From the NCBI GenBank assembly GCA_050084515.1, contig CM114271.1, forward strand, positions 5,208,001-5,272,000: a stretch of 64,000 nucleotides of DNA. The letters run 5' to 3'. This DNA is from Blasia pusilla. Lineage: Eukaryota. Below, piece after piece: positions 1 through 63,327 of this stretch (position 1 is its first letter; each line of letters starts with the position of its first letter). A program made the translations under genes and the position numbers. Below the pieces are notes generated by a model. It ran no database searches, was not told the DNA's origin, and worked only from the letters and a program-made list of their open reading frames with translations.

Positions 1-1740
1 ATGCTACACCTGACATAGAGGGTCGCTCCACCGCAACACCCTCATCCACCTCAAAGACGTGCAAGAATAACACCCCACGTTCACACAACGTGGCTGCTAG
101 CTGAAATACAAGAGCTAAGTCAACTCCTAAAGCCATCAGCTCCATGGCCGAAAACAATGGGGATCCCAATATTGAAGTTGCCATCCGCAATACTGCAATG
201 GATGCTGCATCCGTGTCTACTACACGTGATGTAGATGCCTCAGTCCCCACTGTCCGCTCAATAGGTTGCGTAGGAACCATGGATGGAGTCTTAAGCACCT
301 CAGACAATAAGAATGACTGGGGAAGCCTACCCTGCCTCCCAGCCTCACCCCTCTGTGGGTCCAACTCCACAGTAGCACCACTTGGCTCTGACGCTCGAGT
401 GGCTCCTCTCGTAACTACAGCTGATGCCTCAACGTGTGTTTCACTCGCCATATAAGAGAGATCATCCCCTCCATAAGAGGTGGAAGCCCCTGCTCCCGAA
501 CCTGATCTATGCTGGATACCAACCATAGTAGCCAACTTCTGCTCCAACTGCTCAATCCTGGCAGCCATAGCTAACTCTGTCGTAGTGGTAGGCTCTCCAA
601 CCACTGGTCCACCTCTACCACCCCTACCACCTCGGCCTCTCGGAGCTACTCCACTACGGCCGCGGCCTGATCTCAACTCTGGATGAAGATCAAAGCAACG
701 CTCTCGAGGATGACCTGGTCTCCCGCGATGATCACATTGAGTTGGGGCCGACTAAGGCCCATCCTCCAAAGTCCGTCTCCCATCCTCTTGGGGACAAAAC
801 TTCCTAACATGATCACCTCCACATGCGCAACATGACTGTCCTTGCTGCCGGGCAGCAAATGGAGGAAATAGTCTCTGCGCAAGTGTCCCTCTAGGACCTG
901 ACTGTGGTCGTGTGTACCCCCCACGACTCCCACTACTACTACCACCACCACTACTACGAGACTGTGAGGTGGGCTGCTGAACACGAGAAGTAGTGGTTGT
1001 ATCCCTACTGAATGCGGATGTCACCACTCTCTCCTTCACCATGTCAAGCTCAATCTTCTTAGATAGAGCAAACACATGGGTCAATGTGGGTGAATCATCA
1101 CTCATAAGAGTAGCATCACGTACCCTGCGGCGGAACTCTCTGTCCAAGATCCCATACCTAAACTGGTACCTCCATGGGTACCTCCACTGGTATCCCCACT
1201 CCGGCTTGTACTCGTACCACTCAACGTCGGACTGACTAGCATAGTAGGAGCACTACTACCAATACCACCATGGGTGATAGACACATAGCCTGGAGACCAA
1301 TATTGTCTCCATGCCTCAATCTCAGCAATATGGTCCTTCCTAAACTCATGGTAATCATCCATGGTTGGTCCCTCCAAGTGCTGAAACAACCCCTTCCAAG
1401 CCAACAAGGGTGTAAACAACGTGGCGTTCCGCAACATCTGCATATCACACCACGTATCAAACTCCTGCATGAAGTCCTCCAACTCAATGGTACCCACTGC
1501 ACCCGAGTATCGTCGTGGGCCCTTCGTGGCCCCATATATCCCGTCCATGTCCCAAATCAATGGAGCTGCAACACTCGATAATAACGTGGAAGACTCGGTG
1601 TTTGGAACACCCTCGTCCTCCTCTTCATCAACAATCGGAAGTGGAAAAGGTAGTGGATACCTAAATCCACTCCGTGTGAAACCACCACCGTCCGCACCAC
1701 GGTCCCCAACCAGACCATCCGACAGCTCCGTGATGACCAA
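1..1740 (-). pseudogene. gag region of element A (two zinc knuckles, RGG tract), interrupted by stops and a deletion
   Basis: ORFs 1102-1740 and 752-1147 (-): RYSGAVGTIELEDFMQEFDTWCD and CCACGGDHVRKFC, followed by a second CDH-GRPGH-C knuckle, matching gag of element C. Confidence 0.8.
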
Positions 1741-2344
1741 CGCCGATGCCGCACCACCACCAAATTACCACCACTAAGTAACCAAGTGACGTCGATGTCG
1801 CTATACTATTCTAGCTCTACTAGCTATTGGTGTAGGCAAGCTAACCTGTCATCACCACAAGAAGCCTCCCACGGTCTACTGGTCATCACTCCAGCCTCAC
1901 TACCGCTAGCACACAGGAGTAACACTACTCTGGAAATCAACGTCAACCCTAACAATGGGCGTGCAAGCAACACGCTTTAGATCGGGCGATCTAAAGCGTG
2001 TTGGAAAGCTCTCAGCAAGGTGCTTCTTTCCCAACCAACCACGCACCAGATTCACACCTCCAACATAGGCCACAAGCCACGAACATCCACGGCTGAGTAC
2101 ACAATCAGCCCTAACCAGATCCTACTGATCCACAATCGAAGCTACCATCGATCTACGTCAGTTCTTTGAGTGAAATCCGTGAAAGACCTACTGTCATAAA
2201 ACACGTATAGAATCACATACAATTGAGCCAAACCCACTCCACGATGGGAGAATCTAGGTTGAAGCTTGCGGGAAACACCATAACCAAGAGCTCTACTCAC
2301 TACCAAGGCTAACTCCCAACGCAACAGGCTCAACTCAAAGAACT
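1..2344 (-). mobile_element. Element A: 5' part of a DNMT-bearing Gypsy-like retrotransposon (subfamily 2, same as element C); runs off the left edge of the window
   Basis: Base 1 onward (atgctacacctgacatagagggtcgc) matches 54861 onward. Colinear with 54861-58490 apart from two internal deletions. Contains gag, the self-priming PBS (2159-2171) and a truncated repeat A (2172-2344). Confidence 0.93.
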
Positions 2345-5300
2345 AAGGCGATGGACCTTAACTGCTTGACATGGATCCTCAACTTGGGAGTGGCTCAACA
2401 GCGTTGTATGAGATCGCAACAGATCACAACGTTGTGTTGGTGAGCCCCATGCCTACCGAGACGGTGGAGGCAGTGGCTGGGGGCGACACCCGAGGAGATC
2501 TACACACCAGGAAACATTGGGAGAGACACCCTTGGACTTCTTGGGATGTTTTGCAGGTATGCCAGGAGATGATAGCCACAACATCAAGCGTGGTTTCGAG
2601 CACTCCACGTGGAGGAGATCAGAGTTTGCAGTTGGCTGTAGGAGAGCGGCCGAGTGTTGTTGTTCGAGACGGGGTGCACCATAGCAACCACCGATATCCG
2701 CGCCGGAGAGTCCTACCGTAGTCACGATGGAGACTTGGGAGCCAGATATGGGCCCTAAGTTGATAGGAGGAGAGCGGCGCCAAATACATTAGTTCCTCAG
2801 GAGTTATAGAAGCTGCTTTGTGTTTAACATGGAGGATTTGGGTACGTTGAAGGGACCGGGGATCCGCATTGAGTTGTCGAGTGATATGCCGATCTTCCGC
2901 CGACCCTACAGGTATAGTGATATGGAGAGGGCTCTGATTCAGAGTAGGAGCCAGGACTTGGTCAGAGCAGGACTAGTGGAGATGTTGCATGGGGCGTATG
3001 CATCTGCCACTATTATGCCCGCCAAGAAGGATATGCATGGCAAATGGACAGATAGGCAGATGTGTGGGGATTACCGACCTATCAATCGGCAGACGAAGTC
3101 CGATAGGTATGCCATGCCCACCCCTGAGGAGATCTTTGATGCAATTAGTCACGCAAAGGTCTTCAGTTCGTTGGATTTGCGGGTTGGATACCATCAGCTG
3201 CCTATCAGATTGGAGGATAGGCAGAAGATGGCATTTTGGGGCATTGATCCTCACGGGAAGGATTGTTTGTACCAATGGCGGTTCTTACCATTTGGGTTAA
3301 AGAACGCCCTGGATGAGTTTAAGAGGGTCATGGATAGGATCTTGGCAAGTCTAGATTTTGCTAGGTTTTATATTGATGTCATCGTAGTCTTTAGCGCCAC
3401 GATTGGGGAGCATGAGCGACATCTAGAGGAGGTGTTTCGACGATTGCAATTACATGGGCTGAAGCTACATTCAGGCAAGTGCAAGTTCTTCTACGACCAG
3501 ATTGAGAACATGGGTCATACGATATACCCATGGGGCCTTGGTGTTCAACACACAAAGGTAAAAGCTATCTCACGCATTCCACACCCTACAGATGTGAGCC
3601 GTGTTTGCGTATTCATGGGATTGGCGAACTTCTATCGACGATACGTCAAGGGATTCAGTTCGATTGCGAAGCCGCTGATCTTGCTGACCAAGGTGGATCA
3701 CGAGTGGCACAGGGGGGATGAGCAGGAGTGAGCATTTCAATTGCTCAAAGATAGGTTGACGTCCGCGCCCACTTGAGGAGACCGATCAGGGGGTGCCCTT
3801 TCCAATTGCACACAGATTGGAGCATGTTGGGGCTTGGAGCGGTGCTCACCCAGCATGATGATGAGGGTAGAGAGTTTGTGGTGGCTTACGCTAGCCGCTC
3901 GAACAACGCTGCAGAGGTGAAGTACAGCTCATATGAGGGTGAGTGCTTGGTTGCGGTGTGGGCTGTCACGCATTTCAGGTGTTACTTATTCGGCAACCCT
4001 TTTACCATCATCACTAATCATCAACCACTGAAGTGGTTGATGGAGTCCGACAAGCTTACAGGGAAGCTTGCGAGTGGGGCTCTGTTGTTGCAGGGGTATG
4101 ATTTTCACGTGGTTCATAGACCTGGGACGCTCAACTAGGATGCACATGGGTTGAGTCGTAACGCATACCCGAGTAATCGAGATGCGACTAGAGCTCGATG
4201 GCAGAGAGAGTGATGAGGAGTCGGTGCCAGGATGGCACGCGTCAGCCTATTTAGGCATGTTGGTGATGGAGAGCCAGAGTGTGGAGACTTCGATGGCGAG
4301 GTCTAGTGGAGAGTCTTTGGATCCCGAGGCCAGTGAGGACACGACAAGTAGCCGAGATATTCATGATGATGGAGTAATCTTGGAGTACCTTCGTACTGGG
4401 AGCGTTGCAAGCACCGTGGATGCTAGAGAGCGGGATCGAATCCTAGAGTGGCCCAGACGGTTCCGTTGGGAGGGGATAGATATTTTGAGGGTTTGGGAGG
4501 ATGGCAGAGTAGGCGTAGTGCCGCATCCTTTGCAGAGAGCACGACTAGTGCAGCATGCCCACGAGGAGGTGGGTCACTTTGGGGTGAAGCGGACGTACAG
4601 CTTGCTCTAGATTCAGTATTGTTGGCGAAGCATGCAGACTGGCGTTCAGCACTTTGTTGCCAGGTGCATGGTGTGTGATCGCGTCGAGCATCGTTCAATG
4701 CTCCGACTCCACAGTTGCATCCATTACCGATCATGGGCTTAGGATATAGATGATGTTTGGATTTTGCAGGATCTTTGCCTTTGACGGAGCGTCACAGTCG
4801 TTATGTGTTGGTGACGGTCGAGCACTTCTCGAAGTGAATCGAGTTGGTTGCATTTCCTGACAAAGCGAGTGAGGGAGTAGCTTATGCCTTCCTTGACAGA
4901 GTGTTGAGTCATTATGGCGCACTGGCTGAGGTGTTGACAGAACAGAGTACCGAGTTTCGCGGTGAGTTCCAAGCCTTGTGTGATCAGGCGCTAATCGACC
5001 ACCACACGACTTCGCGAGATCATCTCGAGGCGGATGGATTAGCGGAGAGAGTTGTGCAGACGGTGAAGAGGGGTTTACGCAAGTATGGCTTGCAGAGAGG
5101 TCACCTAGGAGATTGGGACCTCCAGTTTCCATGGTTGGCGAAGGGATATAGATTCAGAAGGCAGACATCCTTAGCGTCTTTTTCACCGTACTTGCTACTT
5201 TATTGCCGAGAGCCAGATTTACCTGCGGCCATTCGTCGAGATGCTGGTGAGGTGGTGGACCTTGATGACCCAGATGTATGGGTGCGAGCATATTCTCAGA

Positions 5301-5789
5301 GGGCTGAGTTATTTCGGAGAGTGATGCCCATGACGTTCGAGAACTTGGCGATTGCACAGCATCGGGATATGTTGAGGTATGCGACTATTCGGGGTGGTGG
5401 TTATCGACCAACTTTCCGGAGGTTTCATCAGGGAGATTATGTCTACTTGTAGCATACGGCACCGACGACGTTGGATGTGACTGCAGGGCGCACTATTCTG
5501 GGAGTGCGTGACATTTTTGCCATCGGGTGTTCTCTTGCTGGAGGGAATGATATGGAAGGACCATGTGCGTAATTGTGCACCATGTCACCTTCCTAATATT
5601 GATGGTACAGTAGATCCGAGCTTAGCAGCAGTTCCTGCAGGCTTGCGTTGTATGTTGTGTGGTTCTGCCCGTGGTGCGGCCATGATGCTAGTCTGTGATG
5701 GGTGTTCGAGAGAATGGCATATGGCATGTTTGACGCCACCTTTCACTAGGGTTTCTCAGGGATGATGGATGTGTCTCAGATGTCCATAG
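2345..5789 (+). pseudogene. pol of element B: DNMT tail, RT (~2820-3730), RNase H (~3773-4138), integrase (~4550-5620), PHD finger (5649-5783)
   Basis: RT: RQMCGDYRPIN, SSLDLRVGYHQL, FLPFGLKNA, FYIDVIVVFS. RNase H: FQLHTDWSMLGLGAVLTQ, YSSYEGECL. Integrase: HEEVGHFG, ADGLAERVVQTVK. PHD: CMLC...LVCDGC...WHMACLTPP...WMCLRC. Multiple stops and frameshifts. Confidence 0.92.
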
Positions 5790-5960
5790 AGTAGGTAGTT
5801 CTACATTCCGACTTGTGTTTGTGACATGGATGCCAAGAAGGCGACTAACGATGGGGCCACATGAGCACCCGGCCTTCTTACTCTTAGCGTCTGAGAGATG
5901 TATGTCATGGTAGGTAGGAATATATGGCTATCTGGAGTTAGAGGGACCTAACCACTAGTT

Positions 5961-5970
5961 AGGGGGGCGA
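5961..5970 (+). promoter_or_regulatory. Polypurine tract (AGGGGGGCGA) of element B
   Basis: Directly precedes repeat B1. The identical 10-mer precedes B1 of element C on the minus strand (49465-49474). Confidence 0.8.
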
Positions 5971-6740
5971 TTGGAGATATTTTGGTACTTCTTGTCTCGT
6001 TGTTTGGATGCCATGAGTTAGCATGGGATCATGCGTGTTTGTGTGTGTGTTCGGTGACAGCGATGTATGTTATGTAACGATGTGTATGCGCACGACAGCT
6101 GTCACGTCTTTTAGGATAGATCGGTGAGATCTAATAGAGCCCCTTCGTGAGTAGTAGAGGACACGCTCAACAAGTCGCGGATGACCTGCTGAAGCCCCGG
6201 AAAACCTGAGAGAGCAGGTTTCCCCTTCGTTTCGGCTCATTTGGAGCCATATTGAGGAACTTACTATTTTAGGTAAGTACCATTTTGAATATATGATCGA
6301 CTTTCTATTTTTGGTAAGTGGTCCTTGACCTCCTACATCAGGTCAAGAGCCAAGAAGGTGACTTGGGAGAATAGATTACCATGGAGAGAGCTTGGGAGAG
6401 GGAAGGGGTATACCTCAAGGAGAGAGAGCTTGAGAGCTCATTCTCTCTTTGTTGAACCTCTTGGCATGAGGCGGCGGAGCTATGGTACCTTGCCTTGTGA
6501 ATGTAACCCAAGCATCTCATTATGAGAGTGAATTTGATTTGACATGAGAGAGAGTGCACAACTTTGAGAGCTATGGTGTGAGATGGTGGAGAGAGAGATT
6601 GGATCTTACTTTATTGGAGATATTTTGGTACTTCTTGTCTCGTTGTTTGGATGCCATGAGTTAGCATGGGATCATGCGTGTTTGTGTATGTGTTTGATGA
6701 CAACGATGTATATTGTGTAGCGATGTGTATGCGCACGACA
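5971..6740 (+). repeat. Split terminal repeats of element B: B1 5971-6097, A2 6100-6613, B2 6614-6740
   Basis: B1 and B2 are 127-bp direct repeats (ttggagatattttgg...gcgcacgaca). A2 is homologous to 44660-45175, the 5' end of element D. Confidence 0.92.
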
Positions 6741-9700
6741 TAATCATAATGTATTACATGCTACATAGAGAGAGGTGGAGATATCATCTTCTTGGCATAA
6801 TGAGGGATACAATCCCCATCCTAAAATCAAAATGATAAAGTCGAAAGTGGGAATTATGATCCCTAAAACATTAGCTTTGATTCTATAAAAATGCCTTGTA
6901 TTGAGATTTAGTCAAAGACCAAGAGAAATCAAAACAATCACTACCAAAATATGGGAATATGAAGGCACAAGAGCATCGTTTCTATTAAATCCATTGCCGT
7001 AAGGATGGATTGAATTCTAATAAGATTTATGGAGAACTAATTCCTTTCCGACAACCTTGATTTCTTATCTTGCCCACCATCTTAGCATACAAATTGTTCT
7101 TTTCCAAATGACTCTTTTGTATCATGGGGCTGGAGATATTGTGAGGAAGGACAAAGTTGGAGACCAAAACCATTAAAAAGGGAACGAAGAGACCTAGAGA
7201 ATTCTTTCCCTACACAATTGGTTAATTCCCTAGTAGTTGTATAGGAAGACAACACAAATTTTGGAGTGAATCTAAAACACTCAAATTTTTTGGAGACTTC
7301 AAATTCCCACCAAACATATGAGGCACTCGGGCAATCCATCAAGCAACGTAACGAATGAATCAAATCAAATGTCCCACGCAACAATAATTTTTCAGGAGAG
7401 TAGAAGTTATCACGACTCAGAAGAGCCATTGAAGCCTTGGAGAACACCGGAACAAGCATCAAAATTTTCTAAGGAAACAAGAAGCTATCAAAATCTTCCA
7501 AGGAAACAAGAATCCAACCTCAATGATGAAATCCTCCTTAGGCCAAAATTATTAACTCCCTTGCACGCACCAAAATCTTGAACATAAAGTTAATTGATTC
7601 AACTTGAATTTGAGAGACGAGACGAGCCAACTGCCAAATGAACTAGTCCTTAAAGTAGTAGATTCCTTTCTCGGTGCATACGACAAACTTCAAAAATCCA
7701 TTGCGCAATGCAACCTCACAAATTTTATGCAAGGTATTTTAGTTCAACGAAAACATCCCCAAGGAAAATTCTTTCCGATTGGTTCCATGGCTAGCCTCCA
7801 AATTCTTCTCCCTTTCCAATACCACAGGGTTTGTCTTCGAGACGTATGAAAAGTCACAATTTAGTGGAATCTATATTACTATTGCAAAGTGCCCCCTTCA
7901 TTTTTCAAACACCTCTCTTGCGCATATATGACAATTTCAGCCGCTCATGTTTTGGCATGTATCCTTCATAATTTAGAGTAAATTATGAGATTAGTCAATT
8001 TATGGTTTGGTTTGGAGTCCGTTTGTAGATTTCAAAAAAAATCTCTACAATATGTGAAAAAATGAATAAGGACCGAGAGATCAAGCTTAACCCAAACAAA
8101 AGAAGTCTTTTTGGGGTTTTAAAGAGGAGAAAAAAATTTGAAAGGACCTTTTTTTTGGCTTCTCCCACACACAAAACTCAAGCAGAAACTTCCGACAACA
8201 ATTATGATGACCCTATCGAATAAAAAACCAAGGTGTTCATTTTTAGAAGATGTATTTTAGATATTTTTATGGAAAACCTTCTTTAATTTTTTAACACGTC
8301 TGATTTAAAGGCCACATTTGGATGGCAAGAAAAAAATCGGAGAATATCAAAATTTGTGACCATATGCATTTGGACTCTAAACGAAAGGAGTGGTGCAAGC
8401 GTTTACATCGGGGAGTGTTAGAGACGAGGGGCAGAAGAGGACTCACATGGAAACGAAACTAACATGGCTCTTGCAGTTTCATGCACCCAATATCTCCATA
8501 TGTGCGATCGGTGATGATGAATGATATGTGCGATCGGTGATGCTGAATGTCGGCAGTGTACTGGAAAAGTGATGAATCATTCTCCTGGTAGGAAGACGAT
8601 ATCGGTCTTGAGCGCGTTGGATTTCCCCCTCAACGATTGAATCCGCAGGAGACTTCTCCACTGACTTCGGTCGATTAAAGTCCGCCCTCGCACTTATCAT
8701 TTCGTTCCGACACCCTCACAGTCGAGATTGCAGCTTAGCCTTTTTGTGACTTCTACAGCGAAATTCGAGATCGGTGAGAATCTGATGCCATGTTCTTCGT
8801 CAATCTGGAAATGGGGCTGCTTCCATTGACGCACTGTAGTGAAGAGCGGCTTGCCATGTTCCCCGGAAAGCTGTCAATTACGCTGTTTCATTGACTCACG
8901 CACTCACTGTGCTACTGTAGGCGCTACCATGAAGGAGGGAAGGATCAGAGAAGAGCTATGGGATCATCATAGACCACTATCTCTCCAAGTTGGTGAAGCA
9001 ATCGAAACGATGCCTGACTTCTGCTGTAAGCAGGATTAGGATCGGAGATTGACTGTAAGAGCACATTGATCTGTTCTGCTGTCTAGATGTACCGGCCGAA
9101 ACTCTACTGGGGAGGACTCGCTAGAAAGGGAGGGTTCCAAGAAAGGGCAAACTTGAGGAAGGAAGAATCAAACCAAACAAATCCTAAGTGAGTGGAGCGT
9201 CTCTCATCACTAGTGGTCCAATTGCGATTCCCTCTGCCAATCCAATCAATGCCTCCCTCCTACCAGCTACGGGTGCATTGCAACCGCCGAAATTGAACTG
9301 CCGAGAACTTGCTAGAAAAGAACGATCCCAATATGAGGATCGAAATTCTGCCATTGATTACTAGCTAGAACGATACAGACGGGACACACTTGATGTGATT
9401 AAGAGGGGTGGATTTCTCATCTGCTGGTGAAGGTGGAGTAGAGAATATGTATGTGTCGTAGAAAGAAAACAACGACACGAACCATAACGTGTAAGTCTAG
9501 ACAAATGTGGTGGTTCAACTCGCTACCAATCCTCGGCGCGTAGCTTGACCTCAAAGATTTTATGCATGGATAGAGAAGAATCGGTCCGAGGTGATTGCAG
9601 GACACATGATGACGGAAGATACAAACTGGACAAGTTTACTTGTTCCCCGACACTAAGACGTGGTTTAGAGCGGAATGTTACTCATCACCACTCCCCCAGG

Positions 9701-44659: not shown

Positions 44660-45175
44660 TGTCACATTTTTTAGGATAGATCGGTGAGATCTAGTAGATC
44701 GCCTTTGTGAGTAGTGGAGGACACGCTCACAAGGTCGAGGATGACCTTCTGAGGCTCCGGGAAACTTGAGAGAGTAGATTTCCCCTTTGTTTCGGCTCAT
44801 TTGGAGCCATATTGAGGAACTTACTATTTTAAGCAAGTTCTAATTTGAATAGATGATCGACTTTCTATTTTTGGTAAATGGCCCTTGACCTCTTACATCA
44901 GGTCAAGAGCCAAGGAGGTGACTTGGTAGCATAGGTTACCATGGAGAGAGCTTGGGAGAGGGGAGGGGTATACCTCAAGGAGAGAGAGCTTAAGAGCTTA
45001 TTCTCCCTTTGTTGAACCTCTTCGCATAAGGCGGCGGAGCTATGGTCTTGCTTGCCTTGTGTGTATACCCAAGCCTCTTATTAGGAGAGTGAGTTTGGTT
45101 TGACATTGACAGAGACATGTGAGAGTGCACACATGTGAGAACTATGGTGTTGTGAGAGAGATTGCATGTATTTTA
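44660..45175 (+). repeat. Repeat A1 (5' terminal repeat) of element D
   Basis: Homologous over its length to 6100-6613. Not preceded by repeat B. Followed directly by the self-priming PBS (45175-45190). Confidence 0.88.
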
Positions 45176-48100
45176 CAAAGAGAGAATGAGTGAGTGAGAG
45201 AGCTTCATGGGTGAGCTCGCTGGTTGCTTGATGTTTCGTGCAGGTTGGGGGACCGTGCTCCCCGCTTCATGGCTTATGGGAGTGCTTACCGAAGCAAGAG
45301 CCCTGCGAGTTTGCTGTTTTGCTTTGCTGATTTTTTGTACGGGAGAGTGGCACACGGAAGTGCTGGCCAATTTTCAATAGGAATTGAGTATGGGGGCAGA
45401 TTGCTCCATGCTGGTGCTCTCGAAAGCACTATGTAGCTTGCTGATTTGTGTTCTTATAGATTTTATACTTTCGTAGGGAGAAATCAGCGCGGAAGCGCAA
45501 CCAAATTTTGTGTAGGAGAGAGAGACGTTGGGCTTTACGACAGTCCCCGTTGGTTTTTACTGGAATGTTTGATTCAAAATATTTTTTGACGCTATTGTAG
45601 ATCATGAAGCTCTGCACGTTGTGCAACAAACGGTGTGCAATTTGGAGTTGCGAATTAAAAGTTATGTTCCACCCGTTTAGAGCATGGAACGGTATATTAC
45701 AGCATTTAGAGGGGGCACCCATGGACAATTACCATGAGTTCTCCCATAGATATGCCTAGGAGATTGAGGCATGATGACTCTACTATGACCCACACTATGT
45801 GTCATGGATGGAGCGATTCCCAGATGAGGAGGAGGAGTCAGGAGAGGCTACTTCCTTTTCCACTAGTGATGTTTTAGGAGGGGTCACTCGCACTGGAGCA
45901 GTTGCACCATCTAGTCGCGTTCGTCCCATGCTCAACCCCATGGTTGAGTTCTTCGCTGAGTTGAGGACGAGGGGATACGAATGGAGAAGTTACGGAGCAT
46001 CCACGACTTCCAAAGGTGTCCGGGTGAGAGTTTGCGTGAGGCTTACACTCGCTTGCACCGATTGATCAACGTCACTCAAGGGGTGATAGAGGCTTTGGCT
46101 ATCTAGTCATGGTACGCGATGCTGGACTGGACCTTGCGGACACGGGTGCGAGAGGGGGTGCTTCTTATGAACACCTCCTCTACTTTGAGAGATGTTTTTA
46201 GGACCTCCAAGAACATTGAGCACAACATGGCGAAGGAGAGCGCAACCACCATGGGTTCTGGGCGAGAGCAGTCATGATTGCCTGCGCCACGAATGCAACA
46301 ACGTGGACTCCGAGATAGGTCAACTGTGGCACCACAAGCTCAAGGAGAATACTAGGAGGCCGTGCCACAAAGACTTGCACCTTCATATGCGGCTCAACAA
46401 TAGTTGCCTACGATTACTTGTTGGTCATATGGTGGAGCCCACCATCAGCATGATTGCACTCGTGAGGATCCAGGACGTGTGCCTCAGCATGGAGGAGGAG
46501 ATGGCGCTATTCCAAGAGGTTATCAATGTGACTATTGTGAGAGGTATGGTCACATAGGCGCCAAGTGTTTCAGTTTACACCTTGAGTTACCTCCATACCG
46601 AGGGCCAAAGAGGGCACCAGAGCGAGTAGCGGGTCCGGATGGGGCTAGAGATCGTGCACCTGGTGGTCGTGTGGGGGGACAAGGAGCTGGAGTTTCCCGA
46701 TAGGGTGGTGGAGGTGCCCGTGGATGAGGTGAGGTCCCACCACCTGGACGCATCAAGGGGAATGCTAGGCGCGAGGCTGGGATGGTTGCTCAGAAACATC
46801 AGCTACAGGAGCAGATTGCCGCTATGGCATTGAGGTTACCCGATGCTGGATCCATGGCATCGACATCATATGGAGCAGACAGAGATATGGAGGATCTTGG
46901 TGGGATGTGTGGGGTTGCCTAGATGGAGGCCGCCGCAATTGTGATGCATGGAGTAGCTGCAGAGTCGGATCCACAACGAGGGGAAGCCAGGAAATAGACT
47001 AGGCTTCCTCCGTCTTTCACGTTGTCGAAGGTGATGAGGATCCCATCGATGGGTCCTGATCAGAGTTCCCGGAGAGTTGGTAATGTTATTGCTGTGTAGG
47101 CACGGAGGGCAATGGGAGAAACAAGTGTGATGACTCCTATTGTTGATGCTCAAAAAGAGCACATGTCGAGTACGATGTTGGGGGCGGCCACGATGGTGTA
47201 CCGTGCTCCGCTATTTTTTGCTTCCGATTTTATGACATTGGGAGGTACACCTGCCGAGGTATTCCGGTTGGCCGCTATGCTATGTGAGTGTGGAGTTGGA
47301 GTTCTTGTATCACGTTTCGAGGTGATTGCAGAGGAGGTGATGGGCCTGCCCTTGGAGCTGATGCTAGGGCCATCCACGTCAGATTCATGGCAGGTTACAG
47401 CTGCTAGGATGGCAGAGATGCCTGCTAGACTCGCGGTAGAGCATGCCATGGCTTCTCTTGGTGTTGTGTTGATGGATAACCAGGGAGAGGTCTTCCAATT
47501 AGTGAGTCCCGTAGGTAGAGCTTTTAGTCCGCATCGCGTCTTGTTGGATTCAGGAGCGCAATCCCTAATGTTGGGGAAAGCATCATTCAGAGGATAGGGC
47601 TTGACGAGAGCCGATGTGGAGCGTTGTCCATTCCGGATACAGACATCCTTGGGTGGAGCGAGTACCACACAGTATATCACCCGACAGGAGGTTGTGGTGA
47701 GGATTCTTCGGGGACATCCTACAGATGAGTCCGTGGTGCGAGCCAAGGCGATAGTGACAGATGCAAAATCCTATGACGTCTTGGTTGGTGGAGTAGTGTT
47801 ATACCCGATGGGGTTTTCCTTGGATTATTGGGAGGAGTTAGCGTCCTACAGACCAGGATGGCAGTCAGGTGATGGGCGCCTTAGCTCATTACCCGTTCGA
47901 TTCACAAGTGTAGTGATCGAGCAACGGCCAGGAGAGATGGCGACCTTAGCAACATTTTTCCAATCAAATTGGACTCTTACCTCATGAGAACTTCTCGGGG
48001 AGGTTTGTTATTTGGAGCATTTAGCAGTGCCATCACTTGGCCTAGTGATTTGATTGAGGGACATGTCCATGAAGTGGATACTCCCCTTCCTGATATTTCT

Positions 48101-48325
48101 CTGCAGAGGAGTGTAATGGTAGCCACATCAATCTGTGGAGGAGAGGTGCCGCTTTGGGGCTCAACTAAAGAGCTTCCACCCTTAGCCACTGAGCATGTGC
48201 AGACCGCGTGGAGCGAGATGCTTGCACCAGAGTGTGACAAATCAGAGGAACCCCAAGTAGGCAAGAGTGCTGCTATGACCCCTTTGGACACCACCCCGAT
48301 TATGTGGTGCATCCTAGAGAAGGGT

Positions 48326-48897
48326 ATTCGCGTGTTGGATCTCTTTGGAGGGATCAACATTGGGTTAGCTGCTATTTTGCAGGCTAGAGTGCGCGTGCAA
48401 CAGTATCTATATGTGGAGATTGATGATGTTGCGAGGTGCCCTTCACTTCACCATGTGGCGCAGTTACATATCCATTTTTTTTTACTTGTTTTCTGCGTCC
48501 GCCATTCACGGTTACCAAAGTTCCCTACCGAGGGACATTTCATTGTCGGGGGCGCAGGACTTGGAGCGGAAAGGGACCATAGACTTGGTCATTTCTGGTT
48601 GGCCATGTCAGGGCCAATCGAGTGCTGGACGGGGTAGCGGATTAGCTGACTCTCGATCCAAGTTGTTCAAGGAGATGATGCGGATCTTGAACATTTGCTG
48701 GAGCATCAGTCTCATCTTCTAACATACATTCTATAGAGTATATACCAATTTTGGGCGATTTGAGGTCCCGTGTGGTGACAAGTGCACATCAAGTGCGCGC
48801 ATGGATTGGCTTGGCAATTTTGTTGGATGCGGCCATTGTGGGCTCACAAGCATATCGCCGACATCTTTGGTGGACCAACTTGGTACCACACAAGGTG
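48326..48897 (+). pseudogene. N-terminal half of the DNMT3-like C5 cytosine methyltransferase domain of element D
   Basis: IRVLDLFGGINIGL (motif I), YVEID (II), DLVISGWPCQG (IV, catalytic PC) and AYRRHLWWTNL (VIII); frameshifted. Confidence 0.88.
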
Positions 48898-49464
48898 TGT
48901 CGTGCGAATCCACATCGTCATACAACATACATTGCTGACATACCATACTCACATACATACATAACATAGACGAGAGCATCCACAAACACAAGTGTACCAC
49001 AACAGAAATCCGTGAAAGACCTACTGTCATAAAACACGTATACAATCACATACAATCGAGCCAAACCTACTCCACGATGGGAGAATCTAGGTCGAAGCTT
49101 GCGAGAAACACCATAGCCAAGAGCTCTACTCACTACCAAGGCTAACTCCCAACGCAACAGGCTCAACTCAAAGAACTGACTGTTCTTTGAGTGCACTCCA
49201 CCTTATATCCTCCAACCTAAGAGCGGTCCCTACTGGGAAAGTCAACCCCCAACCCTATGTATGAAACCGCATCTCTACCAAGCCACTACGATCCTACATA
49301 AGGAATGGCCTCTACTAGCACACTATACTCTACGACATAATCCGTATGGTCATGACGGTCGTATGCGAATCCACATCGTCATACAACATACATCGCTGAC
49401 ATACCATACTCACATACATACATAACATAGATGAGAGCATCCACAAACACAAGTGTACCACAAC
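48898..49464 (-). repeat. Split 3' terminal repeats of element C: B2 48898-49003, A2 ~49005-49357, B1 ~49358-49464
   Basis: B1 and B2 are ~106-bp direct repeats. A2 matches 58318-58684. PPT at 49465-49474. Confidence 0.92.
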
Positions 49465-49637
49465 TCGCCCCCCTAACTGGCGGTTAGGTCCCTCTAACTC
49501 CCAGGTAGCCCTATACATCTACTACATGCTATACACCTTCTTGGGTGCCCGAATCATAAGGCCGGGTGCTAGGTTGCCCCATCATTAGTCGCACATCTGT
49601 AATCCATATCATGCAAAGATCAAGTCATCTACCTCTC

Positions 49638-52600
49638 CTAAGTACATCGAGGACAAACCCACCTTCCAATAGGAACAACATCCATACGTGGAGTCAAACA
49701 CATCATGTGCCAACCCCTAGAACACCGATCACACACCAACATACGGGTTGCGTTACCAGCAGATCCACACAACATGCACCTCAAGCTAGCACGGATCATG
49801 GCTAAGCTTGGGTCAACAGTACCATCCACATTTGGAAGATGATATGGCGCACAATTACGCACATGGTCCTTCCAAACAACTCCATCACGACCCTCCAACA
49901 TGAGAACTCCGAAGCTAACACCTCGCGCTTTTCGTAAAATAGTGCGGCGTGCCGTCACATCCAACGTTGTCGGTGCAATCTGCTGCAAATAGACATAGTC
50001 CCCCACATGGAACCTACGAATCGATGGTCGATAACCTCCACCCCGAATGGTTGCATACCGCAACGTATCCCTGTGTTGAGCAATGGCAAGATTCTGAAAG
50101 GCTGTTGGCATAACTCTCCGAAAGAGCTCGCCGGCGAGAACACACTCTCATCCACATCTCTGGGTCATCAAGGTTCACCACCTCACTAGACTCCCGACGA
50201 ATTGCTACTGGCAAGTCTGGATCTCGACCGTATAATAGAAAATAAGGTGAGAAGGAAGCCAAGGATGCTTGGCGACTGAACCTATACCCCATGGCTAATC
50301 ATGGCAACTGAATATCCCAGTCTCTAAGATGCCCCTTCTGTAGGCCATACTTACGCAATGCCCTCTTCACTGTCTGAACCACACGCTCAGCCAAACCATC
50401 CGCCTCTGGATGCTCTTGAGACGTGGTCCGATGATCAATCAACGCCTTGTCACACAAGACCTGAAACTCACCCTGAAACTCTATACCCTGGTCGGTCAGC
50501 ACTTCAGCTGGTGCACCAAAATGACTAAGCACTCTATCAAGAAACGCATACGCCGTTCCCTCACTTGCCTTGTCCGGTAATGCCACCAACTCAATCCACT
50601 TGAGAAGTGCTCCACCATCACCAACACATATCGATGATGTAAATCGATACCAACGGTAACGGTCCCGCAAAGTCCACACTCCAACGGTAACCCAACCCCA
50701 TAATAGGCAAGGGGTGTAATTGTGGTGTACGGGCATTGAATGATGCCCTCACTCGGTCACAAACCATACAACGTGACACCAACTGCTGCACCTGAGTATG
50801 CATGCCACGCCACCAATACTGGCCAAGGAGTAAGCTATATGTACGCTTTACCCCAAAATGTCCCAACTCTTCATGGGCATGTCGCACAATGCGCTCTCTT
50901 TGAGCCAAATATGGCACTACTCGTACTCTACCATCCTCCCACACGCGGAGAATATGTGTTCCCTCCAATCGATACCTCTTAGCACGTTGAAGAACACGGT
51001 CTTGCTCCTTGGCACTCACTATGCCTGGCATCCTACTGGTCCGTAGGAACTCCAACACCAACGCATCATTATGAATATCACGCTGATCCGTACCACCATC
51101 TCCAACCTTAGGATCTGAAGGCTGGCCATCTACCCTCTCACTAGAGTAAGATATCATGTGATCCTCCATACTAGAGTCCACCCCAAACCAACATAAAAAG
51201 GCGGATGCATGCCAACCTGGCACCATCTCCTCATCAACCTCGCCATGCCATCTAGCCCCAGTTGTATCCTCTTGGCTAGTACATGGGTTCCTACTCAACC
51301 CATCGGCATCAAAGTTGGCAACTCCAGGTCTATGTACCACCTAGAAGTCATACTCCTGTAAGATAAGAGCCCACCGTGCGAGCTTCCCTGTAAGCTTGTA
51401 AGACTCCATCAACCATTTGAGCGGCTGGTGATCAGTAACAAGGGTAAACTGTGTGCCAAACAAGTAACACCTAAAGTGTGCCACAACCCACACTACTACC
51501 AAGCACTCTCCCTCATATGAACTATAGCGCGACTCCGCTACATTATTCGAACGACTTGCATAGGCCACCACAAACTCCATGTGCTCATCATCATGTTGTG
51601 TCAACACCGCTCCAAGTCCTAACCTACTCCAATCAGTGTGTAACTGAAATGGGCGTCCTCTGATAGGTCTCCTCAAGATAGGCGTCGCCACCAACTGGGC
51701 CTTAAGCTCCACAAAAGGTCTCTCCTTATCATCTCCCCAATGCCACTCTTGATCTGATTTCAGCAATTGGTTCAAAGGCTTTGCCATAGCACTAAATCCC
51801 TTCACATACCTCCGATAGTAGTTCGCCAATCCCATGAATGCTCAAACTCTACTCACATCTACCGGACGCGGAATAAGTACAATAGCCTCCACCTTTGCTT
51901 CCTAAACTCCCAAACCACCTGGATAGATCACATGACCGAAGTACTCAACATCCTCATGGAAGAACTTACACTTTCTTGGATGCAAACGTAGACCATGAGC
52001 TTTCAACCGCTCAAACACCATCTGCAAATGTATCTGATGCTCCTCCACCGTATTACTGAACACCAAGATATCATCAATGTAACACCGAACAAAATCCAAC
52101 CCTGCTAGGATCCTGTCCATCACTCTCTGAAACTGGGCAAGTGCATTCTTCAACCCAAAGGGTAAGAATTTCCACTGGTACAAACAATCCTTGCCATGAG
52201 AGTTGACACCCCAAACTGCTGTCTTGGCCTTGTCACTCTCCCGAATCGGCAATTGATGGTATCCTGCCCGAAGATCCAAAGTACTGAAAATCTTTGCCTG
52301 TCCCACCACATCAAAGATCTCCTCAGGTGTAGGCATGGCATACCTATCGGCCTTGGTTTGCCGATTGATAGGACGGTAATCTCCACACATCCGCCTATCC
52401 GTGTAGTTGCCATGCATATCCTTTTTAGCAGGCATGACAATGGCTAATGCATACTCTCCATGCGACAACTCCACTAATCCAGCCTCCAAAAGGTCCAACG
52501 TCCTACTCTGAATCAGGTCCCTCTCCATATCACTATATTGGTAGGGACGACGGAAGATTGGCGTATCACTAGCCAAATCAATCCGTATACCGGGTCCAAC

Positions 52601-55600
52601 CAGAGAACCCAACTCCTTCATGCTAAAGGCAAAACAACTCCTATAAGCACGTAGGAACTCTGTAAAGCGTCGTTTCTCACCTCCCGTAAGCTTGGGCCCA
52701 AGTAATGGCTCCCAGGTCTCCTCCACTGGCACACTAGAGGGAGAGGACGATGCCATTGGCTGCTACGAAACCCCCTCACAAGATGGTACACCCTTAGCTA
52801 CACCATCATCTGAGCAAATAACTCCTCCACCAGCATGAGCAACCAACTCCACATGCCCAGCCATAACATCCCATTTACTCCAAGGATGCAAAATACTACT
52901 CTCCTCGCCCCCAGCCGATGCCTCTACCGTCCCGGTAGCCATCGAGCTCATTACAAGGGGTGGAAGACCCACAGACATAGTCCGAAGTTGACGGTGCTCG
53001 GCCATACCAAGACTCAAAATCCAAGTCAAACAATTCAGGTCCATGGCTTGACCCAACACATGACGTCGTGAAGCCTCAGAAATAGAAGCAACCGCTGTCA
53101 CACCAGTAGCAAATCCCATCGCACGCTCTCTTTCATCACCGTTAGGCTCCACCAACGGTCGCACATGAGAATCCCATACAAGCCCCGGACCACCTTCTCT
53201 GTAGGCATGTGACGAGGGAAAACTCACAAATGTGGGTAGTGCCATCCTAGGCTGGCCCACACGGTTCACCACTGCCATGGGTGACCGATCAATAACCCTC
53301 ACCACTTGAGAAAGTCGCCCAGTATCCAAGATACTATCCACGGTAAGGCAAGGATCCCGCTGCACTGCATCATATGCTTGACGTAGACCCTCCCTAGGCA
53401 ACAAGTTTGTCCACCACAAGCGTGGACGATGTGCACGCGAGCCAACTCGCGCTGCATCCAACAATACCGCTGGTCCAATCCAAGACCGCACCTCATGAAC
53501 ACTCGCCATCATCCGGGTCCGAGTGTCACCCAACAATGGAACATTCTCCAGAATGTAAGCTGGAGCACGTGCCAGATAAACCTGAAGATGTCGTAACACC
53601 CGTAACATCTCCCAAAACAATCGAGACCTAGGGTCATGTAATCCCTCACCACGACCTGCACGTGTATGACCCTAACATGGCCATCCAACAATCACCAAAT
53701 CCTTAGGACCAACCCTCTCAAGGTCCTACGCCCCCAACAATGCAATGTGTGATGGCAAAGCACGTTGGTACCCACGAATAGTTGATGGCGGCAACAACTC
53801 AGGATATCTCCGCATCAACTGACCAATATGTCGGGATGAGACTCTATGGGCCGTCTCATCTCGCTCCACATACACGTATCTCCACACAGGAATACCGGCC
53901 TCCAACACTGCAGCCAAACCAGTGCTAATCCCACCAAAGAGATCTAACACACAAATGCCCTCCGGCGGATACTGCCATACAATGGGTGTAGTATCCAAAG
54001 CGGATAACCCAACTGGACCAGAAGTAGGAGTCCGCCGTGGGGCCTCCTCTTCCTTGTGAGGTATAACAGCCTCACACCAAGCCTCCTGCACTAGGCGATC
54101 AGCCTCTTGCCGTAGTGCACCGCCTGAACTCCAAAGTGGCACATCCAACGATGAGGATGCCACTGCTGCAAGAATAGGGACCTTCTCTACCTCCTCATGC
54201 GTAGGAGAATCCATAGCAGAAACATTACCCTCCAAAAAGTCTCGTGGCCAAGTGACTACTCCACTAAAACCAGCCACAGATGCTAACACTGTTGGGGAAG
54301 ACCCTCCTGGTCGAGCCCCAGAAATAAATCTCACAAGAACTTGGCTCATACATCCATCCCCGGACTGCCAACTAGGTCTATAAGACGATGTCTTAGTCCA
54401 GTAATCCATCTGAAAACCCATCGGGTACAATACTGCTCCTCCAACTAGTACATCATACGACTCGGCTGATGTGACTACCGCAGATACTCCCGACCGGGAG
54501 CTATCAGTCGCATGATCTGGTCTCAACTGTACAGAAAACTTCTCCCGTGTCATGAATTGAGACCTATCATTGGCTCCTCCAAGTGATGTTTGAATGTGGA
54601 ATGGGCAAGGCTCAAGCTCTGACCTCCGAATACCTAAACCAATACATGCCGCCTTTCCCAACATCAAAGGTTGGGCACCGCAGTCTAACAAGACTCTATC
54701 TGGTCTATACACTTGTCCTGTAGGACTCACCAATCGGAAGATCCCACTCCGGTTGTCCAACATACATACACCAGGTGTAAGCCTCTCACGATCAATGGCT
54801 GGCCGGGCTGGTAATGCATCCATCTTCGCCGCCGCCGCCGCTAAGTAGCACGGGTACTCAATGCTACACCTGACATAGAGGGTCGCTCCACCACAACACC
54901 CTCATTCACCTCAACACGTATAGCAGTAATACCCCCACGTTCACACAACGTGGCTGCTAGCTGAAATACAGGAGCTAAGTCAACTCCTAAAGCCATCGGC
55001 TCCGTGGCGAAAATAATGGGGATCCTAACACCGAAGTTGCCATCCGCAATCTTGCCGATCGATGTCGCATCCGTGTCTACTACACGCGATGTAGATGCCG
55101 AGTCCCCACTGTCGGCTCAATAGGGCGTGAGGAACCATGGATGGAGTCCTAAGCACCTCAAACAACAAGAATGATGGGAAGCCTAGCCGCCTCCCGGCCT
55201 CACCCCTCTGTGGGTCCAACTCACAAGAGCACCACGTGGCTCGACGCTCGAGTGGCTCCTCTCAACCGCATTGATGCCTCAACTTGTCTTTGCACTCGCC
55301 ATATAAGAGAGATCATCCCCTCCATAAGAGGTGGAAGCCCTCGCTCCCGAACCTGATCTATCCGGATACCAACCATAGTAGCCAACTTATGCTCCAATCT
55401 GCTCAATCCTGGCACCATAGTTGACTTTGTCGTAGTGGTAGGGGTAGCCACCGAGGCTCTCCAACCACTAGTCCACCTCTACCACCCCTACCACCTCTAC
55501 CACCTCGGCCTCTCGGAGCTACTCCACCACGGCCGCGGCCTGATCTCAACTCTGGATGAAGATCAAAGCAACGCTCTCGAGGATGACCTGGTCTCCCGCA

Positions 55601-56805
55601 ATGATCACACTGAGTTGGGGCCGACTGAGGCCCATCCTCCAAAGTCCGTCTCCCATCCTCTTGGGGACAAACCTTCCTAACAGGATCACCTCCACATGTC
55701 CAACATGACTGTCCTTGCTGCCAAGTAGCAAATGAAGGCAATGGTCTCTGCGCAAGTGTCCCTCTAGGACCTGACTGAGGTTGTGTATACCCCCCACGAC
55801 TCCCACTACTACTACCACCACCACTACTACGAGACTGTGAGGTGGGCTACTGAACATGAGAAGTAGTAGTTGTATCCCTACTGAATGCGGATATCACCAC
55901 TCTCTCCTTCACCATGTTAAGCTCAATCTTCTCAGATAGAGCAAACACATGGGTCAATGTGGGTGAATCATCACTCATAAGAGAATCATCACGTACCCTA
56001 CGGCGCAAATCTCTGTCCAAGATCCCATACCAAAATCGGATCGCCTGATCCTCGCCACACCCTCGGTAATCGAAATCAAGCGTCGCATACGAGTGTATGC
56101 CTCACGAAGACTCTCACCAGTCTTTCGCTCAAATTCCTGAAGACTCCTCAACTTCTCCGTCTTCACTCCATGATAGTTCTTCTTCAACCTCTTGAAGAAC
56201 TCTGCAACCGGGCTGAACGATGGTGGGGCACTAGTACCTCCACTAGTACCCCCACTAATACCTCCACTGGTACCCCCACTCTGGCTCGTACTCGTACCAC
56301 TCAACGTTGGGCTGGATGGCATAGTAGGAGCACTACTACCAATACCACCATGGGTGATAGACACATAGCTTGGAGACCAATATTGTCTCCATGCCTCAAT
56401 CTCAGCAACATGGTCCTTCCTAAGCTCATGGTAATCATCCATGGGTGGTCCTTCCAAGTGCTAAAACAACCCCTTCCAAGCCAAGAAGGGTGTAAACAAC
56501 ATCTGCATATCACACCACGTATCAAACTCCTACATGAAGTCCTCCAACTCAATGGTGCCCACTACACCCGAATATCGTCGTGGGACCTTCATGGCCCCAT
56601 ATCCACCGTCCATGTCCCAAATCAATGGAGCTGCAACACTCGATAACAACATAGAAGACTCGGTGTTTGGAACACCCTCGTCCTCCTCTTCATCAACCGT
56701 CGGAAGTGGAAAAGGTAGCCGATACCTAAATCCACTCCGTGTGAAACCACCACTGTCCGCACCACGGTCCCCAACCAGACCACCCGACAGCTCCGTGATG
56801 ACCAA
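49638..56805 (-). pseudogene. gag-pol of element C: Gag (~56805-55450), protease (~54685), DNMT (~53960-53010), RT (~52600-51900), RNase H (~51700-51340), integrase (~50900-49800), PHD (~49780-49640)
   Basis: CDHCGRPGH...C; VLLDCGAQ; VLDLFGG; YILENVP; RRMCGDYRPIN; YIDDILVFS; LHTDWS; HEELGHFG...CMVC; WSVDFAGP; VLTDQGIEF; DGLAER; CMLC...CDRC...WHMMCLTP...WVCPRC. Broken by stops and frameshifts. Confidence 0.93.
53010..53960 (-). pseudogene. DNMT3-like C5 cytosine methyltransferase domain within the polyprotein of element C
   Basis: Motifs in canonical, non-permuted order: ICVLDLFGGISTGL (I), YVERD (II), VIVGWPC*G (IV), YILENV (VI), RAHRPRLWWTNL (VIII), ERERAMGFATGVT (IX), RRHVLGQAM (X). Confidence 0.92.
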
Positions 56806-58304
56806 CGCCGATGCCGCACCACCACCAAATTACCACCACCAAATAACCAAGTGACGTCGATGTCGCTATACTATTCTAGCTCTACTAGCTATGGGTGTAG
56901 GCAACCTAACTTGTCATTACCACAAGAAGCCTCCCACGGTCTACTCGTCATCCCTCTAGCCTCACTACCGGTAGCACACAGGAGTAACACTACTCTGGAA
57001 ATCAGCGTCAACCCTAACAATGGGCGCGCAAGCAAGAAGCACCGATGGAGGGGATCCAAACACAGGAAGTCCAACGACAACCCTCCAATCGCAAATGGAA
57101 ATCAAGGTAACATAATCCACCAAACGTGGTGCCCCCTGAATCCACAAAACCCACCACACAATTTTAACGCAATAGCTACTCCGCCGCGGGTCGATGACAT
57201 GCTAGTCGAACTCGCAGCACCTGAAAATATCACCTGCATGGAGAGGCTACACCGTACTATGCGCTAGAGGAACATCAACCAAAAACCTGAGATGCATAAA
57301 GCGCCTAACACATCTCAAAACAGTACCAAATAAGCTACAACAGTGTGTACACTGGCATAGTTAAGAACTCAGCAGTTAAGCGTCCTCCAGGCAGAATAGC
57401 CCAAACATGGATGACCAGTTATGCAACACTCAAATCCCAAATCCTGCAAAAATTCCCTCACGCCCAAGCAAGCAAGCTTGCTTGCTTGCTCCTTGCTCCT
57501 TACTCCGCCTCTCACGCCCGCTCGCCCCGAGCTACCACGAGTTGCCTCGAAGCCTCAAAACGCCGAGACATGCCCCGTTCGCCACGCTTCGCCATGCTTC
57601 GCTATGGAGAGAGGCCCAACCAGGGCGCCCCCAATGGGATAGGCGTCTCCAACAATGAACGAGTCACCAACCAACGAGCCCCTCCAATCCGCTGTCCACC
57701 ATAGCCAGACCTTGAGCTAGTCCGCAAAATTTCGATCAACAATTACTTCACAAATCCGTGACCAAAATCGAATCTGTTTCAACCAGAATTCAATTGACCA
57801 CCATAGCTATCTCTCCACAAAAAATCAGCTACAACCAAGCTCTGTACTCCGAGCTAAAAATCAGACAAACTTGCTGTCCAGAATCGCAAAAATCGCAAAT
57901 CCGACAGCGCTTCCGCCGAGTTTCATGCACGCAGAAATCCGCACCGCTCCACGCACTCAAGCAGATAGCTTCACATCAGATCACAATACAAGTAGCAACA
58001 GGAATCTCTCACCCGATCTGGATGAACTTCAACAGAGCTTCCGCACTCCAAGCTCTCCACATCAGAAAACCGTCGAACACGAACCAGAATCTTCAATCCT
58101 TGATAACTTCCAACTCCCTTGACAAAATCCAACGATCTAAAGCGCGTTGGAAAGCTCTCAGCAAGGCGCTTCTTTCCTAACCAACCACGCATCAGATTCA
58201 TACCTCCAACATAGGCCACAAGCCACAAACATCCACGGCTGAGTACACAATCAGCCCTAACCAGATCCTACTGATCTACAATCGAAGCTACCATCGATCT
58301 ACTC

Positions 58305-58317
58305 CAGTTCTTTGAGT
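58305..58317 (-). promoter_or_regulatory. Putative self-priming primer-binding site (ACTCAAAGAACTG)
   Basis: Lies immediately 3' of A1 and is the exact reverse complement of CAGTTCTTTGAGT at the predicted TSS (58491-58479). Confidence 0.72.
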
Positions 58318-58684: not shown

Positions 58685-58688
58685 GGTG

Positions 58689-63247: not shown

Positions 63248-63252
63248 TGACG

Positions 63253-63284
<32 letters not shown>

Positions 63285-63327
63285 TGGAGCCTAAATCCAG
63301 CGCCTTAGACCACTCGGCCAAACCGTC
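63248..63327 (-). tRNA. tRNA-Leu (anticodon UAG)
   Basis: GACGGTTTGGCCGAGTGGTCTAAGGCGCTGGATTTAGGCTCCAGTCCGAAAGGGCGTGGGTTCAAATCCCACAGCCGTCA: acceptor stem, D-loop, anticodon arm CTGGA-TTTAGGC-TCCAG, long variable arm, TTC loop. Confidence 0.96.

Follow-up and report, generated by a model that had tools for sequence, protein, structure and literature searches.

The window considered in this work is a stretch of 64,000 nt of the Blasia pusilla genome (contig CM114271.1, positions 5,208,001 to 5,272,000 of the forward strand), and all the positions given below refer to it. Positions 5961-6740 hold the 3′ end of a decayed, self-primed Ty3/gypsy element composed, in this order, of A1, a primer binding site (PBS), the internal region, a polypurine tract (PPT), B1, the dinucleotide GC, A2 and B2. 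Whole copies of the same family, hereafter family 1, are about 10 kb long and have the order A1-PBS-internal-PPT-B1-nn-A2-B2. The same layout, with the same internal attachment (att) site, is found in a second family, family C, which is about 72% alike to family 1 in pol and whose long terminal repeats (LTRs) are not alignable with those of family 1. The features at the 3′ end of the window copy are the following.

5961..5970, + strand: PPT (AGGGGGGCGA), a motif found also before B1 in family C and in distant relatives
5970..6097, + strand: B1, 128 bp, ending in GCACGACA, with GACA as the right-end integrase site
6094..6103, + strand: internal att palindrome GACA-GC-TGTC, with the spacer GC at 6098-6099, conserved in family C and in relatives
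6100..6613, + strand: A2, 514 bp, starting with TGTCAC, with TGTC as the left-end integrase site; promoter-side part plus R/U5 (repeat and 5′ unique region)
6437..6452, + strand: self-primer sequence, nt 338-353 of A, complementary to the PBS after A1 and predicted 5′ end of the transcript
6613..6614, + strand: A2|B2 junction (ttta|ttggagat), in which the PBS-proximal cDNA end is joined to the PPT-proximal one
6613..6740, + strand: B2, ending in GACA, the right end of the integrated element
6741..6744, + strand: right copy of the target duplication (TAAT), the left copy (TCAT) being upstream of the window

The last A of the PPT is in common with the first base of B1 (position 5970), and the A at 6613 likewise both opens the PBS and closes the PPT. 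B1 and B2 of the window copy are identical at 121 of 128 bases. The A1 of this copy is found about 14.3 kb before the start of the window, and a nested family-C element intervenes; this pairing is likely but not certain, with one mismatch between TCAT and TAAT and a difference of 7.8% between A1 and A2.

The genome scanned consisted of 390 Mb in 26 contigs, with TTTAGGG telomeres. The best 40 of 8664 candidate matches, chosen by similarity, all span the whole PPT-B-A-B end. A genome-wide count of exact patterns gave 1229 A|PBS, 1495 A|B and 1152 B|A junctions, the reversed control giving 0 for each. When 19 copies were extended by 10 kb, a whole A1 was found in 12 of them and the remaining 7 had no whole A1 within 10 kb; together with 6 further copies paired by position, these formed a set of 18 paired copies. 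Outside this genome, PPT-B...B pairs were found in 29 of 80 metagenome loci, mostly with a GACA-nn-TGTCA-like site ending B1. These 80 loci are heavily redundant: many of the 29 are re-assemblies of one insertion, and the other 51 are short, truncated or with no B-A-B pair detected. Two full-length metagenome relatives (62% and 55% integrase identity) have both A1 and 4-bp target duplications. Named homologues come from Calypogeia, Marchantia, Riccia, Sphagnum, Closterium and Klebsormidium, the nearest being those of liverworts and Sphagnum.

The initial annotation of this stretch, made from the letters alone, had placed an integrase-type site with a 2-nt spacer at B1|A2, inside the LTR, and had proposed a 4-bp target duplication. 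Both proposals were borne out: the spacer is of 2 nt in about 97 of the first 100 listed att sites (counted by eye), and the duplication is present in 18/18 paired copies, 13 times exact and 5 times with one mismatch. Comparison of copies thus shows the integrated TG...CA ends to come from the internal CA-nn-TG site. The junction at 49351-49365, in the family-C copy of the window, had been described as degenerate; it is decayed in that copy, but the family keeps the site, since CA-nn-TG or a single-base decay of it is present in 29/30 family-C loci and the window copy is the sole badly decayed one. Spacers are mainly GC, AC, GT or AT, they do not match the flanks and their variants are without tree signal. 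A target-derived spacer, as in insertion sequences (IS), was rejected precisely for this composition, unlike that of the flanking DNA. The first spacer base is changed from G to A in 46% of family 1 and 41% of family C, versus means of 13.5% and 6.7% at CHG positions (H = A, C or T), with a strand bias; the second base is changed in 21% and 7%, respectively. No other CHG position varies as much as the first spacer base in either family.

According to the textbook rule, a PBS primed by a tRNA begins with TGG. A tRNA primer was rejected, because the PBS here does not start with TGG and matches A instead: the PBS after A1 is complementary to nt 338-353 of A over 16 nt, a match reached by 0/1000 shuffles. 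In four families the complementarity between PBS and A is 13-16 nt long, again with 0/1000 shuffles for each A1. Self-priming by pairing of the PBS within the LTR is described, in the passages concerned, for Tf-type elements (PMC5341516, PMC6317226). Because the PBS pairs within A and the PPT abuts B, the LTR defined by reverse transcription is B-GC-A. The priming sites do bound this unit, in agreement with the B+A repeat put forward by the initial annotation. In four loci (L056, L062, L080, L215) the primer sequence is joined to an inverted A, like fossil primer-to-minus-strand junctions, an inversion between repeats being an alternative source of these fold-back loci. As a side observation, these four loci and L071 have fold-back or inversion structures exactly at the PBS/self-primer pair.

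Three RNA-Seq runs were considered. Sense depth is 80-340 over B1, att and A2 and 10-15 at the start of B2; it declines over the last 150 nt of A2 and is down about tenfold before B2, with some reads reaching B2. Transcripts therefore mostly end in A2. In run X12, 39 reads leave at 6613 into the PBS.

Bits of primer and PPT are retained at retroviral 2-LTR junctions, and retention of the primer is known in Tf1. The A2|B2 junctions of the element here resemble these. Among the first 100 of the 1495 listed A|B junctions, inspected by eye, 17 had an additional A (+A), 6 a PBS remnant of 2-16 nt, 1 an additional AG and 1 a short deletion; PPT remnants are kept at L114 and L142. For an unbiased sample we picked 60 ends by att alone and considered the 50 with B2 within 1 kb: 31 junctions were exact, 14 were +A, 1 was +AC, 1 had a PPT remnant with filler and 3 had deletions. 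Hence 19/50 deviate, and 45/50 are exact or +A, i.e. within one base. The other 10 of the 60 ends appear to be tandem, fold-back, nested or truncated copies. The central A shared by the PBS and PPT ends is found in both families, though their LTRs do not align. L245 and L251 are microhomology deletions at the A|B junction, the filler at L071 is derived from the element itself, and no host-derived filler was identified among the 50 unbiased junctions. In a single case, L114 (G000:C1:9236935 region), the filler starts like the host telomere repeat TTTAGGG and is followed by a PPT remnant.

The junction variants were also placed on a tree, the test being made on 67 of 120 loci. The +A state requires 18 changes for 18 cases (shuffled mean 16.0), hence no tree signal, versus 5 changes for a variant of the A end lying 4 nt away (shuffled 13.7; 0/2000 shuffles), which has one. 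Private alleles shared by A1 and A2 were 37 in the 18 own pairs versus 12 in 306 cross pairs, and 4 versus 0 in the last 75 nt. Minor alleles of B1 recurred in the own B2 in 99 of 198 cases, versus 35 expected. From this comparison of copies, A2|B2 is shown to be formed anew from two cDNA termini in every cycle, and both A copies and both B copies to be re-made, each pair from one template, in every cycle. The initial reading of 6613/6614 as a join of the PBS end to the PPT end thus stood, on the sequence, on the PBS and PPT remnants and on the lack of tree signal.

That annotation had gone further, proposing that linear BA-internal-BA cDNA circularises and is cut at one internal site, with ABA-internal-B and A-internal-B as alternative products. 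A BA-internal-BA circle would contain two att sites with the same 128 bp before and the same 514 bp after them, and a random choice between them would give A-internal-BAB and ABA-internal-B in equal numbers. We looked for the reciprocal product with A-B-att patterns and in 30 sampled 5′ ends. In family 1, 512 PPT-B-att ends stood against 6 A-B-att matches, 5 of them fortuitous and in flanking DNA, the sixth a complex tandem (true reciprocal 0:512). In family C the 508 PPT-B-att ends were accompanied by 10 A-B-att matches: 8 by chance, 1 B-A-B-A-B and 1 true (1:508). The true one, L345, has the order A-B-GC-A-PBS-internal-PPT-B with AAGT on both sides, i.e. it is an ABA-internal-B. Over both families the reciprocal product is therefore 1 versus 1,020 normal ends, and none of the 30 sampled unbiased A|PBS 5′ ends was preceded by A-B (they included a tandem dimer and an end with part of B). 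The predicted ABA-internal-B product thus exists, at about 1 in 1000 rather than 1:1, and a free circle with two equivalent sites did not hold. The comparison of copies shows that the left att, next to A-PBS, is used about 1000 times more than the identical right att after the PPT.

A-internal-B copies exist as well and represent, by a rough estimate, 10-15% of ends. Seventeen of 19 candidates were taken in, 6/17 were without A1 in the range examined, and a target duplication was found in 10/11 pairable copies. They are not diagnostic: A-internal-B and solo A-B units were rejected as evidence for a circle, since intra-element recombination (B1 x B2 for A-internal-B) gives both. About 7/30 A|B loci (L084, L085, L092, L094, L097, L098, L110) are such solo A-B units, several with 4-bp duplications; either A1 x A2 recombination or a circle cut twice may be their source. 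Junctions of B to B are four genome-wide; three of them are precisely B1-GC-B2, with different flanks and without microhomology. They would be expected from a cut made after the spacer before the B start had been joined, which suggests that cutting can precede end-joining.

Taken together, the copies display a circle-like topology, and the route that they record is an asymmetric one. Its core (self-priming, regeneration of the repeats, a fresh end join, an internal att and a strong asymmetry) is very probably right. For the whole path, including an end-to-end jump of the reverse transcriptase (RT), to which we assign a probability of about 0.45, we propose the following order. RT would make a linear BA-internal-BA cDNA. 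With the second strand transfer its left LTR would become double-stranded, well ahead of the passage of the plus strand across the ~9 kb of the internal region. Integrase would assemble on the left att first and nick after CA, no other att being double-stranded during that passage. Staggered cuts after CA on each strand of CA-GC-TG would leave the usual 2-nt 5′ overhangs. The plus strand, at the A end, would then make a third, end-to-end jump onto the B start through the shared A, copy B and run off at the cut. The product would have normal CA-3′OH ends and the order A-internal-B-GC-A-B, with no free closed circle needed. The jump would be under selection, because an A-internal-B copy without a second R cannot replicate. 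Three things lead us to rank the RT jump first: the precision of the junctions (45/50 within one base), the presence of the shared A in both families, and the ease with which B1-GC-B2 and B-A-B-A-B are read as run-off and run-on products. Retroviral RTs can clamp and jump at ends (PMC3035444), and internal cutting of a palindromic LTR-LTR junction is within the reach of HIV integrase (PMC1905944).

Several points weigh against the RT jump and the steps around it. The published RT clamp needs 2 nt including C or G (PMC3035444), and the overlap here is one A. Host end-joining would account just as well for the +A blunt-type joins, the microhomology deletions L245/L251 and the telomere-like filler of L114. 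Of the three B1-GC-B2 copies, just one could be matched to an A1 and to a target duplication, the latter with one mismatch. When the nearest neighbour of each B2 was sought, it was the own B1 in only 8/54 elements, B being short. The RNA reads are 88-95% alike to the window copy, hence they come from other copies, and the runs are linked by species label only; in these three runs there was no pile-up of read starts at 6437, i.e. the transcript start was not seen. Finally, the order of events is deduced from integrated copies and RNA reads, and not from cDNA, a circle or a nick.

The asymmetry decides against a free symmetric 2-LTR circle in which either att is cut at random. The single reciprocal product and the A-internal-B copies speak for it, but it predicts about 1:1 where 0:512 and 1:508 were found, with A-B upstream in 0/30 A|PBS loci; such a circle is ruled out unless reciprocal insertions were purged about 1000-fold, and we consider it very improbable. 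A closed 2-LTR circle with a biased cut is a different matter. Here host end-joining would close the linear BA-internal-BA, and integrase would open it at the left att, either being bound there beforehand or being directed by a mark (e.g. by the element's methyltransferase). The junction spectrum, with its PBS/PPT remnants, blunt-type joins and small deletions, resembles that of retroviral 2-LTR junctions, the one true ABA-internal-B would be the expected leak, and the 2-nt spacer would turn two 3′-processing cuts into two ready ends. Foamy virus integrase is said to cleave the LTR-LTR junction internally, and internal cleavage is known for HIV integrase (PMC1905944). However, the two sites have 128 bp before and 514 bp after them in common, and a 1000-fold bias between them needs a further source; B1-GC-B2 requires the right att to be cut while the B start is still free, and deletions are few (3/50); we hold this explanation to be unlikely, if still worth keeping in view. 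The closed circle alone, without methyl marking, is a tentative possibility. The boldest version is improbable in our judgement: a streptophyte-wide Gypsy lineage with the closed 2-LTR circle as obligate precursor, its att moved off the error-prone cDNA ends and its own methyltransferase marking one att so that integrase opens the other. The hint of methyl marking would be the excess of spacer G>A at a CHG position, which neutral polymorphism explains equally.

Alternatively, integrase could cut the left att of linear cDNA first and insert both of the held pieces, the host joining the A end to the B start last, as a repair. The asymmetry would then follow naturally from a linear molecule, and B1-GC-B2, the deletions and the L114 filler would be accounted for. 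Against this, each insertion would imply a chromosome break, yet target duplications match in 18/18 paired copies; the 50 junctions have no host-derived filler, and the 10/60 ends lacking B2 have the look of rearranged or truncated copies described above. We regard it as rather unlikely. In a DIRS/PAT-like route, the transcript would run through B2, A2|B2 would be inherited and B1|A2 would only template the ends. The repeat order is that of PAT, Ngaro and SymbioDIRS and some RNA reads do reach B2, but there is no match to a tyrosine recombinase in the frames scanned, a DDE integrase and 4-bp duplications are present, the junction has PBS/PPT remnants without tree signal, B1 and B2 are not separate lineages and RNA falls about tenfold before B2. 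This route is hardly credible. Lastly, the window copy is old, broken and nested, and the layout might be thought a by-product of nested insertion, post-insertion recombination or misassembly. This reading, whose probability is negligible, is already refuted by the counts: there are more than 1000 junctions of each kind in two families, and the same order with target duplications recurs in relatives at 55-62% integrase identity.

Pfam matches follow the Ty3/gypsy order (a weak gag, RVT_1, RT_RNaseH, Integrase_H2C2 and rve), and the best relative of solved structure is Ty3 Gag-Pol (E 1.8e-16). In the frames scanned, there was no Pfam confirmation of a protease, no match to a chromodomain after the integrase, where a PHD finger was matched instead in open frames of sister copies, and no match to a tyrosine recombinase, the integrase present being of the DDE type (rve). 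A C5 DNA methyltransferase lies inside pol, with PF00145 above the cut-off in three sister-copy frames and homologues in Marchantia, Calypogeia, Riccia and Sphagnum. Klebsormidium nitens was absent from the results of two methyltransferase homologue searches; RT-RNase H homologues are found in this species at 43-50% identity. As for class, the TG...CA ends and a target duplication within the 4-5 bp of Ty3/gypsy elements are present. Two complete LTRs with outer ends serving at once as cDNA ends and as att sites are not: the element ends in A and in B-A-B, the unit delimited by the priming sites is B-GC-A and the att lies inside it. The repeats are A-coding-B-A-B as in Gypsy-DNMT3, judged against the printed legend text. 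The split direct repeats of DIRS/PAT/Ngaro are also present, without their combination of a tyrosine recombinase with neither DDE integrase nor target duplication.

The other elements of the window are the following.

2346..5800, + strand: decayed pol of the window copy (RT, RNase H, integrase, PHD), with stops and frameshifts; RT and zinc-binding matches are in the window, RNase H, rve and PHD come from sister-copy open frames
1..2344, − strand: 5′ part of a family-C element, nested in the family-1 element of the window
44660..62073, + strand: second family-1 copy, with A1 from 44660, PBS at 45175-45190 and the 3′ end missing
48898..58684, − strand: complete family-C element (A1-PBS-internal-PPT-B1-A2-B2), with a CACC target duplication, a self-primer match of 13 nt and the decayed att at 49351-49365

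The two family-C elements are separate, and lie in reverse orientation inside the two family-1 copies, in the same methyltransferase region. Their insertion points are about 100 bp apart (family-1 positions about 5746 and 5646), a possible target preference. The second family-1 copy has a tandem duplication of about 120 bp within its RNase H region (60399-60636) and sits in what appears, at 43500-44660, to be the coding region of another decayed retroelement (protease-like, by eye). Elsewhere in the window there are a tRNA-Leu(TAG) gene at 63248-63327 (−), a homeodomain-encoding frame at 25050-25703 (−), probably an exon of a host gene, and a degenerate tandem array at 18213-19247 with units 65-75% identical. 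Outside it, the end of contig C2 (L168, end of G000:C2) is a long GCCCAG array and not a TTTAGGG telomere.

In the usual teaching, LTR retroelements integrate as linear cDNA through att sites at its ends, and 2-LTR circles lead nowhere. The thousands of copies in this genome bear witness to another route, with cDNA ends joined in every normal copy and integrase acting at an internal site. The question of integration from a circle junction becomes testable in a natural, transcribed family, in which the precision of the ends is separated from integration. In addition, LTR finders and LTR dating will mis-bound such elements in bryophyte genomes. In the open literature (closed journals, Repbase and bioRxiv supplements being outside our search) no account was found of att position, priming or integration route for the A-coding-B-A-B Gypsy layout. 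The layout itself is already in print for the Klebsormidium element, and the integration route departs from the one taught for retroviruses and their relatives.

The closest known system is KnitGypsy-Dnmt3 of K. nitens, which the legend of Fig. 4c in de Mendoza et al. 2018 (PMC5890265) describes with DIRS-like repeats, Gypsy domains and the order A-coding-B-A-B. By comparison with this printed description, the two share a Gypsy pol, a C5 methyltransferase and the repeat order; unlike it, the element here is in a land plant (TTTAGGG telomeres) and in thousands of copies. The passages on KnitGypsy-Dnmt3 (PMC5890265) contain no att site, primer, target duplication, PHD or mechanism, and a 2026 preprint (bioRxiv 10.64898/2026.05.21.726589) mentions streptophyte Gypsy-DNMT3 without structure in the part concerned. 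An oddity of a figure legend would in this way be explained. As parts of PMC6317226 and PMC5341516 describe them, Tf1/sushi and the plant Tcn1 chromoviruses are likewise Ty3/gypsy elements with a self-priming PBS; they have two whole LTRs, terminal att and a chromodomain, whereas the element here has split repeats, an internal att, a PHD and a methyltransferase.

Elsewhere in the literature considered, split repeats are a feature of tyrosine-recombinase elements. PAT, Ngaro, VIPER and SymbioDIRS (PMC7192593, PMC5890265, in the relevant parts) share with the present families the split repeats A1...B1A2B2 and an internal copy of the end-to-end junction, and some of them carry a methylase. Unlike them, the element here has a DDE integrase, TG...CA ends, a 4-bp duplication, PBS and PPT, and the junction made anew would be A2|B2; the same layout would thus have been reached convergently with a different enzyme. 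IS3/IS911, IS30 and IS21 use a DDE enzyme on abutted inverted ends, with a spacer of 2-3 nt taken from flanking DNA at each cycle and no RT; in contrast, the spacer here is mostly GC or transitions of GC, unrelated to the target site. As to retroviral 2-LTR circles and the internal cleavage of their junction, Panganiban and Temin reportedly worked on the subject in 1984. The likeness is in the end-joined cDNA and in an integrase that cuts a palindromic CA-spacer-TG internally (PMC1905944). In retroviruses, however, this is a side path in which the att is the end-join itself, whereas in the element here att and end-join are apart and the end-join is present in every normal copy.
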